Below are positions 46,600 to 46,671 of a stretch of 64,000 nucleotides of DNA, piece by piece. The position numbers and the translations under genes were made by a program. The stretch lies in the NCBI RefSeq assembly GCF_030384885.1, contig NZ_CP128613.1; one strand, given 5' to 3'. The notes below the pieces were generated by a model, which saw only the letters and a list, made by a program, of their open reading frames with translations, was not told where the DNA came from and did not search any database. This DNA is from Escherichia coli. Its GTDB lineage: Bacteria; Pseudomonadota; Gammaproteobacteria; Enterobacterales; Enterobacteriaceae. How positions within the stretch are numbered: position 1 is the stretch's first letter; each line of letters starts with the position of its first letter.

Positions 46600-46616
46600 A
46601 TAAGCGAAGAATTGGT
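46600..46616. promoter_or_regulatory. Palindrome AATTGG-N5-CCAATT upstream of lldP (candidate LldR operator)
   Basis: aattggtagggccaatt perfect 6-bp inverted repeat, ~190 bp upstream of the lldP start; GntR-type dyad. Assignment to LldR is inferred. Confidence 0.5.
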
Positions 46617-46645
46617 AGGGCCAATTTGGAGTGAGGAAGGTGTCT

Positions 46646-46671
46646 GTAAAGAAAAGGGCAATTCCCATCAG
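46646..46671 (-). terminator. Hairpin with 11-bp stem downstream of the adhesin gene (probable terminator)
   Basis: gggcaattccc-atca-gggaattgccc; on the minus strand it is followed by TTTTCTTT. Confidence 0.6.

Follow-up and report, generated by a model that had tools for sequence, protein, structure and literature searches.

The DNA between the adhesin gene and lldP in this Escherichia coli strain very probably carries two independent signals, both already characterised, whose adjacency merely reflects a short intergenic region: the LldR operator O1 of the lldPRD operon and the terminator of the gene upstream. We analysed a stretch of 64,000 nucleotides (the window). All genes of the locus lie on its minus strand, in the order mtlA-mtlD-mtlR-yibL-lipoprotein-adhesin, followed by two REP elements, a hairpin, O1, the lldP promoter, O2 and lldP-lldR-lldD. 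A sequence-only reading had drawn attention to two dyad symmetries in this region, a palindrome and a hairpin. Both sequences are present exactly as quoted there, but they lie 10 nt further to the right: the palindrome at 46610..46626 instead of 46600..46616, and the hairpin arms at 46656..46681 instead of 46646..46671. The features of the locus, with the basis for each assignment in brackets, are as follows.

43980..44756, minus strand: lldR, a GntR/FadR-type regulator binding O1 and O2 (identity to K-12 LldR)
44756..46411, minus strand: lldP, L-lactate permease (ATG at 46411)
46484..46500, minus strand: predicted LldR operator O2, AATTGGCAGTGCCACTT on the lldP-sense strand (half-palindrome, one mismatch to the palindrome pattern)
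46501..46609, minus strand: lldPRD core promoter region (position between O1 and O2, conservation with K-12)
46585..46692, plus strand, antisense to lldP: STnc380 segment, corresponding to 2086..2192 of locus L037 and 3625..3732 of locus L008 (RF02055)
46610..46626, minus strand: predicted LldR operator O1, also a PdhR box, AATTGGCCCTACCAATT on the lldP-sense strand (published K-12 site)
46647..46655, minus strand: U-tract UUUUCUUUA after the stem (read from the sequence)
46655..46682, minus strand: predicted terminator stem-loop, a perfect 12-bp stem AGGGCAAUUCCC / GGGAAUUGCCCU with the 4-nt loop UGAU (sequence, fold, K-12 ortholog)
46702..46795, no strand assigned: two REP elements in inverted orientation, a BIME-like cluster (inverted repeats and sub-threshold Rfam matches to the REP-derived naRNA4)
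46828..51855, minus strand: trimeric autotransporter adhesin gene of the SadA/UpaG/EhaG family, 1675 aa (ORF, Pfam, RefSeq orthologs)
51899..52582, minus strand: SadB-like lipoprotein gene, 227 aa, first in the sadBA operon (ORF, RefSeq annotation in strain 6409, SadB literature PMC3953254)
53156..53518, minus strand: yibL, which in K-12-type genomes without sadBA is directly upstream of the same terminator

Three small ORFs found mechanically, at 46612..46758 (plus strand), 46469..46624 (minus strand) and 46668..46793 (minus strand), run through REP, operator and terminator DNA without further support and are not genes.

The palindrome and the lldPRD operators

The palindrome at 46610..46626 is a perfect AATTGG-N5-CCAATT that reads AATTGGTAGGGCCAATT on the plus strand. 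The window contains this exact pattern once, where 100 dinucleotide-preserving shuffles predict 0.01 occurrences per window. Read on the lldP-sense strand, the sequence matches the published LldR operator O1 of E. coli K-12 at 17/17 positions, and the same 17-mer is printed in PMC10272880 (Table 1), PMC3582500 and PMC7660256; the identity of the operators is taken here from these later papers, which reprint the sites. On this sequence identity the palindrome is the predicted LldR operator O1 of lldPRD in this strain. This letter-for-letter identity supports the sequence-only reading, which had seen in it a GntR-type operator for LldR.

The K-12 counterpart has been characterised by several approaches. 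Together with AAGTGGCACTGCCAATT, AATTGGCCCTACCAATT makes up the two LldR boxes of the spacer between yibL and lldP, which gave the strongest gSELEX peak; LldR binding to the identical K-12 sequence was shown by gSELEX and gel shift, and the authors report that both boxes agree with the footprints of Aguilera et al. 2008, which cover two sites (PMC10272880). For LldR to bind, the 17-nt sequence of O1 is required (PMC3582500). The same 17-mer, unchanged in the window, is the PdhR box of the K-12 lldP promoter, matching the gSELEX-derived box at 13/14 positions, and a pdhR mutant of K-12 has 3.3-fold more lldPRD mRNA (PMC7660256).

The second of the two boxes is also found in the window. At 46484..46500 lies O2; Table 1 of PMC10272880 lists its string, AAGTGGCACTGCCAATT, as the second of the LldR boxes at the lldP promoter. 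The sequence-only reading proposed a comparison with O1 and O2 of K-12 but did not itself contain O2; that comparison finds both operators identical to their K-12 counterparts. Scored against the LldR box AAnTGGTCnGACCAnTT, which has 14 specified positions, O1 carries two mismatches, as it does in K-12, and O2 carries four.

Sequence, spacing and context of the operator pair are conserved well beyond this strain. The O1 sequence is the same in K-12, O157, UpaG-type strains (ZLWT, ExPEC XM), E. albertii, and Citrobacter, Kosakonia and Klebsiella loci. The starts of O1 and O2 lie 126 bp apart, about 12.0 helical turns of 10.5 bp each. We compared 32 loci, the window among them, from Escherichia, Citrobacter, Kosakonia, Enterobacter, Klebsiella and Pluralibacter; 28 have this offset, and in the other four it is 125 bp. 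As far as spacing can indicate, the 126 bp fit the published model in which LldR bound at O1 and O2 forms a DNA loop (PMC5412874, PMC8689689; the O1/O2 model is also given in PMC8827060). The lldPRD operon, including the cognate lldR, follows directly downstream of the operators, and the encoded LldR is identical to that of K-12 at 254/258 residues (98%), with the N-terminal DNA-binding half unchanged. Set against the K-12 operators (Aguilera et al. 2008, J Bacteriol 190:2997), which have the same sequences, the same spacing and the same distance to the lldP ATG, nothing of substance differs; about 10% of the surrounding spacer positions have changed.

In the window, as in K-12, O1 starts 215 nt upstream of the lldP ATG. 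O1 reportedly extends from -105 to -89 and O2 from +22 to +38 in the original footprinting work. These coordinates would place the transcription start near 46521, and the arithmetic is consistent with the 126-bp spacing. A scan of 46300..46950 with the sigma-70 consensus found no promoter, and we therefore assign no -10 or -35 hexamers. The missing match at lldP is expected for an activator-dependent promoter.

By analogy with K-12, dimers of LldR would bind O1 and O2. In the absence of lactate LldR would repress the operon, in the published model through a DNA loop, and with L-lactate present LldR at O1 would activate it. PdhR would recognise O1 as well.

The hairpin downstream of the adhesin gene

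The second dyad has arms gggcaattccc and gggaattgccc (GGGCAATTCCC / GGGAATTGCCC) at 46656..46666 and 46671..46681. The perfect stem is in fact one pair longer, with 12-bp arms at 46655..46666 and 46671..46682 that include 6 G-C pairs. No other hairpin in the 64-kb window combines a perfect stem of 11 bp or more with a loop of 3-8 nt, and none was found in 30 dinucleotide shuffles. The hairpin alone has a predicted energy of -22.1 kcal/mol; for a 65-nt RNA that contains it the value is -26.5 kcal/mol, with z = -5.5 relative to shuffles. A T-run follows the stem on the minus strand alone (GCCC TTTTCTTTACAG), where both the adhesin gene and lldP are encoded, and nothing T-rich lies 3' of the hairpin on the plus strand. 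In a consensus terminator scan the hairpin is terminator-like on the minus strand and on that strand only. The adhesin stop (46828) lies 145 nt upstream of it, and O1 follows 28 nt downstream. From yibL to the start of the adhesin gene, no second terminator-like site was found on the minus strand in this strain.

Experimental support comes from the K-12 ortholog. The same hairpin lies 90 nt after the yibL stop in K-12, where an intrinsic terminator downstream of yibL was identified by Term-seq and confirmed by single-round in-vitro transcription (TERMITe paper, PMC12207403). The template in supplement file 2 of that paper contains AAGGGCAATTCTCTGATGAGGATTGCCCTTTTCT followed by TTACC, with the mapped 3' end marked at the first T of TTACC, inside the T-run. 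Transferring the K-12 gBlock mark (GCCCTTTTCT followed by TTACC, same T) by alignment predicts a transcript 3' end at about 46649 in the window, 22 nt before O1. The two terminators occupy orthologous positions and share the stem base (GGGCAAUU...AUUGCCC), the UGAU loop and the UUUUCUUUAC tail. They differ in that the window allele, through three substitutions, has 12 Watson-Crick pairs, compared with 11 and one G·U in K-12, and a hairpin energy of -22.1 compared with -19.5 kcal/mol; the gene upstream is the adhesin gene rather than yibL, and two REPs precede the terminator rather than one.

The hairpin is thus almost certainly the intrinsic terminator of the adhesin transcript in this strain, as judged from its fold, its tail and its K-12 ortholog. 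This is the orientation that the sequence-only reading had given it, and the transcript-end mapping proposed there as a check is already published for the K-12 ortholog, with a 3' end in the T-run that supports a terminator. We infer that the window allele, which has three stem substitutions relative to K-12, terminates as well as the K-12 allele. The two REPs between the adhesin stop and the hairpin can themselves stabilise or end transcripts. Under the proposed scheme, the hairpin and U-tract would act as a Rho-independent terminator on the minus strand that ends the transcript of whichever gene lies upstream, namely the sadBA-type adhesin operon in this strain and yibL in K-12. In doing so it would insulate the tightly regulated lldP promoter from read-through, a benefit that we suppose rather than observe.

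The hairpin is also a perfect DNA dyad containing CAATTC/GAATTG, just 28 bp from O1, and it could in principle be a protein-binding site: a third operator of the LldR/PdhR type, or of another GntR-family regulator, that contributes to lldPRD control. The sequence-only reading had accordingly counted AATT-containing half-sites in its arms. We consider such a role highly improbable. Scored over the 14 specified positions of the LldR box, the best of the 17-mers that overlap the hairpin has 7 mismatches, compared with 2 for O1 and 4 for O2, and a search with the LldR pattern that allowed up to 2 mismatches missed the hairpin. In the yibL-lldP spacer of K-12, gSELEX with MEME reported just two LldR boxes (PMC10272880).

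Variation among relatives bears on the same question. We compared seven hairpin alleles: that shared by the window and strain 6409, the K-12/O157 type, and those of UpaG-type strains, E. albertii, a divergent E. coli, C. youngae and C. braakii. A MAFFT alignment of the hairpins was set aside; it placed no gap in the 3-nt Citrobacter loops, and the 3' arms were misaligned as a result. In the pair table used in its place, a small sample with arms defined by hand, 11-12 of 12 pairs are retained on the lldP-sense strand in all seven alleles. Double compensatory changes occur at pairs 2, 9, 10, 11 and 12, and seven cells of the table are G·U wobbles. Read on the opposite strand, 5/7 alleles show C·A mismatches, with a predicted loss of stability of 1-8 kcal/mol. 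In the Escherichia variants one arm has changed to G·U-compatible bases, which breaks the symmetry of the DNA dyad yet not the pairing of the RNA. Conservation covers the stem base (GGCAA...UUGCC) and the U-tract but not the AATT-containing upper stem, which in Citrobacter is replaced by TGGCA/TGCCA with pairing preserved. As far as this comparison of alleles goes, the conservation pattern is that of a terminator RNA and not of a protein-binding DNA dyad, and the half-sites seen in the arms do not hold up as operator sequence.

The position of the hairpin varies with respect to O1 and follows the upstream gene. In locus L025, from the cryptic-clade Escherichia sp. E1V33, the hairpin lies 23 nt past the adhesin stop and is separated from O1 by about 265 nt; across L025 and L008 the distance to the adhesin stop is 23-27 nt. 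Because in L025 the hairpin stays by the adhesin stop at such a distance from O1, it belongs to the upstream gene and not to the lld control region, and its adjacency to O1 in the window is incidental. In L025 (2870..3190) and in L039, also from a cryptic-clade Escherichia, the intervening DNA is an insert of about 265 nt that carries GGGGAGAGGGTTAGGGTGAGGGG-type palindromic repeats. Despite the insert, the O1-O2 spacing in both loci is still 125-126 bp.

Two further arrangements were seen at the hairpin. In Escherichia whittamii (L028, about 8240..8336), a deletion fuses mid-adhesin coding sequence to the hairpin loop and 3' arm (CTGATGGGGATTGCCCTTTTCTTTACC), so that the adhesin 3' end and the hairpin 5' arm are lost; a shared CTGAT suggests a microhomology junction. 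Adhesin-less Citrobacter loci (L002, L005, L010, L011, L017, L018 and others) carry a shorter hairpin, CCGGGCAA…TTGCCCGG, within about 10 nt of the yibL stop, with O1 after it. This hairpin has a GGGCAA/TTGCCC core in common with the adhesin-linked hairpin, and one allele shows compensating C>T/G>A changes (CCGGGTA…TACCCGG). The shared core suggests that the same terminator survives the loss of sadBA in these loci.

The opposite strand and Rfam STnc380

Both dyads also fall within an Rfam family. The model of RF02055 (STnc380, Enterobacterial sRNA) aligns end to end, positions 1-108, to 46585..46692 on the plus strand, and its two stems correspond to the O1 palindrome and the hairpin. The palindrome and hairpin could accordingly be read as stem-loops of a small RNA that is antisense to lldP and the adhesin gene. 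Orthologous Citrobacter segments lend this some weight, scoring 101.8 and 108.7 bits against a gathering score of 60 bits, whereas the window (31.7 bits), K-12 (36.4) and E. albertii (38.5) all score below it. The plus strand has neither a T-run past the hairpin nor a promoter-like site, and the substitutions in the stem leave G·U pairs, which are tolerated, on the minus strand only and give C·A mismatches on the plus strand. Moreover, a protein operator and a terminator of the opposite strand account fully for both modelled stems. A literature search on STnc380 returned no text on an experiment or a definition, with matches to STnc3800 alone. Taken together, an STnc380 small RNA on the plus strand is very unlikely.

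We favour the lldP-sense orientation over the STnc380 strand because of the asymmetry of the wobble pairs, the lack of a tail on the STnc380 strand and the experimentally confirmed terminator on the other. The family and the window share the same orthologous segment, O1 plus hairpin; they differ in that the window lies below the gathering score and the model is on the opposite strand. Most likely, STnc380 captures the operator and the reverse complement of the terminator rather than an sRNA. If its orientation is real, it implies an additional transcript that lies outside the operator-plus-terminator account.

A further role of the segment is conceivable but unlikely. In one variant a stable RNA might be made from it, either a piece of the adhesin or yibL 3'-UTR that ends at the hairpin or an antisense RNA of the STnc380 type over O1 and the hairpin. 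In the other variant, LldR or PdhR bound at O1, 22 nt past the predicted release site, could possibly form a roadblock and in this way tune both termination and read-through into lldPRD. That STnc380 may simply be an antisense image of operator and terminator is likelier than either the stable-RNA or the roadblock reading.

The sadBA operon and its boundary

The genes upstream of the terminator identify the operon that it would serve. The 400 C-terminal residues of the adhesin match the Pfam families YadA_anchor, YadA_stalk and YadA_head, and its orthologs in RefSeq are annotated as YadA-like, UpaG or EhaG. The lipoprotein gave no match in a Pfam scan at E<=0.001; an identical protein in E. 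coli strain 6409 is annotated as DUF3251 domain-containing in RefSeq. The lipoprotein and adhesin genes together form the sadBA operon (UpaG/EhaG in E. coli). According to Grin et al. (PMC3953254), Escherichia, Salmonella and Shigella share its location between the mtl and lld operons, and in K-12 a deletion has removed sadBA. The window has the same gene order as the published sadBA/upaG/ehaG locus, mtlADR-yibL-lipoprotein-TAA-lldPRD, with a YadA anchor and a DUF3251-type lipoprotein (PMC3953254).

What differs from that locus is the number of passenger repeats, even against strain 6409. The spacer is 100% identical to that of strain 6409 and about 87-93% identical to those of other E. coli. 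Even with this otherwise identical spacer, the adhesin has 1675 aa in the window and 1746 aa in strain 6409 (L046, 1763..7003). The passenger contains near-identical tandem repeats of about 70 aa each, and given these repeats and the difference in length from strain 6409, the copy number evidently varies. Upstream of the sadB-like gene lies an AT-rich spacer of 570 bp. It holds a near-consensus sigma-70 promoter-like site, TTGACA-18-TAAAAT (11/12), at 52813..52784 on the minus strand, which precedes the lipoprotein gene.

The adhesin anchor DNA is found in 4154 of 5426 complete E. coli genomes (77%), at >=95% identity and as a single chromosomal copy. K-12-type genomes are without the lipoprotein and adhesin genes and keep one REP and the same hairpin. 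Homology to K-12 begins at query position 131, which is window position 46770, so that the presence/absence boundary lies near 46770, within the REP cluster. From there the hairpin is about 90 bp away in the downstream direction, and O1 about 145 bp. REP content differs among E. coli lineages, with homology starting at query positions 1, 61, 100, 110 or 146, and the sequence from the hairpin onward is common to 5424 of the 5426 genomes. Outside E. coli, two Citrobacter species have the adhesin, then a homologous hairpin, then O1, whereas in Kosakonia, an Enterobacter sp. locus and most Citrobacter loci yibL, hairpin and O1 follow one another directly.

The adhesin-lipoprotein pair is thus present in some genomes and absent in others, and the hairpin lies near the boundary. 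The sequence-only reading had described an island insertion point immediately next to lldPRD regulatory DNA, and the hairpin itself might be taken for the scar of a horizontally acquired adhesin island, for example a repeat at its integration site. We regard this as extremely improbable. The hairpin is kept in genomes without the adhesin, such as K-12, no second copy of it flanks the other end of the segment, and the interval from yibL to lldP contains no integrase, no tRNA and no flanking repeat. The adhesin anchor is widespread, single-copy and chromosomal, and the boundary falls in REP DNA rather than at the hairpin. The hairpin lies outside the variable segment, on the retained side, and the boundary of sadBA is no ordinary island junction. 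In place of an insertion point beside lld DNA, the locus holds a conserved operon that K-12 has deleted. An old acquisition of sadBA in the ancestor of Escherichia, Salmonella and Citrobacter is possible.

Both elements are textbook-type signals whose K-12 counterparts have been mapped experimentally, O1 and O2 by Aguilera et al. in 2008 and by later gSELEX, and the yibL terminator by Term-seq and in-vitro transcription in 2025. They therefore carry little weight as a discovery, and their use lies in the correct annotation of O1, O2 and the terminator, at corrected coordinates, in adhesin-carrying E. coli. For Rfam, an STnc380 family apparently built from the LldR operator and the reverse-complemented terminator merits a curator's look. 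A stable RNA ending at or running across the hairpin, if true, would link the expression of the adhesin or of a ribosome factor to lactate utilisation. On the operator-plus-terminator account that we prefer, a single terminator would serve sadBA or yibL, according to whether the operon has been deleted.
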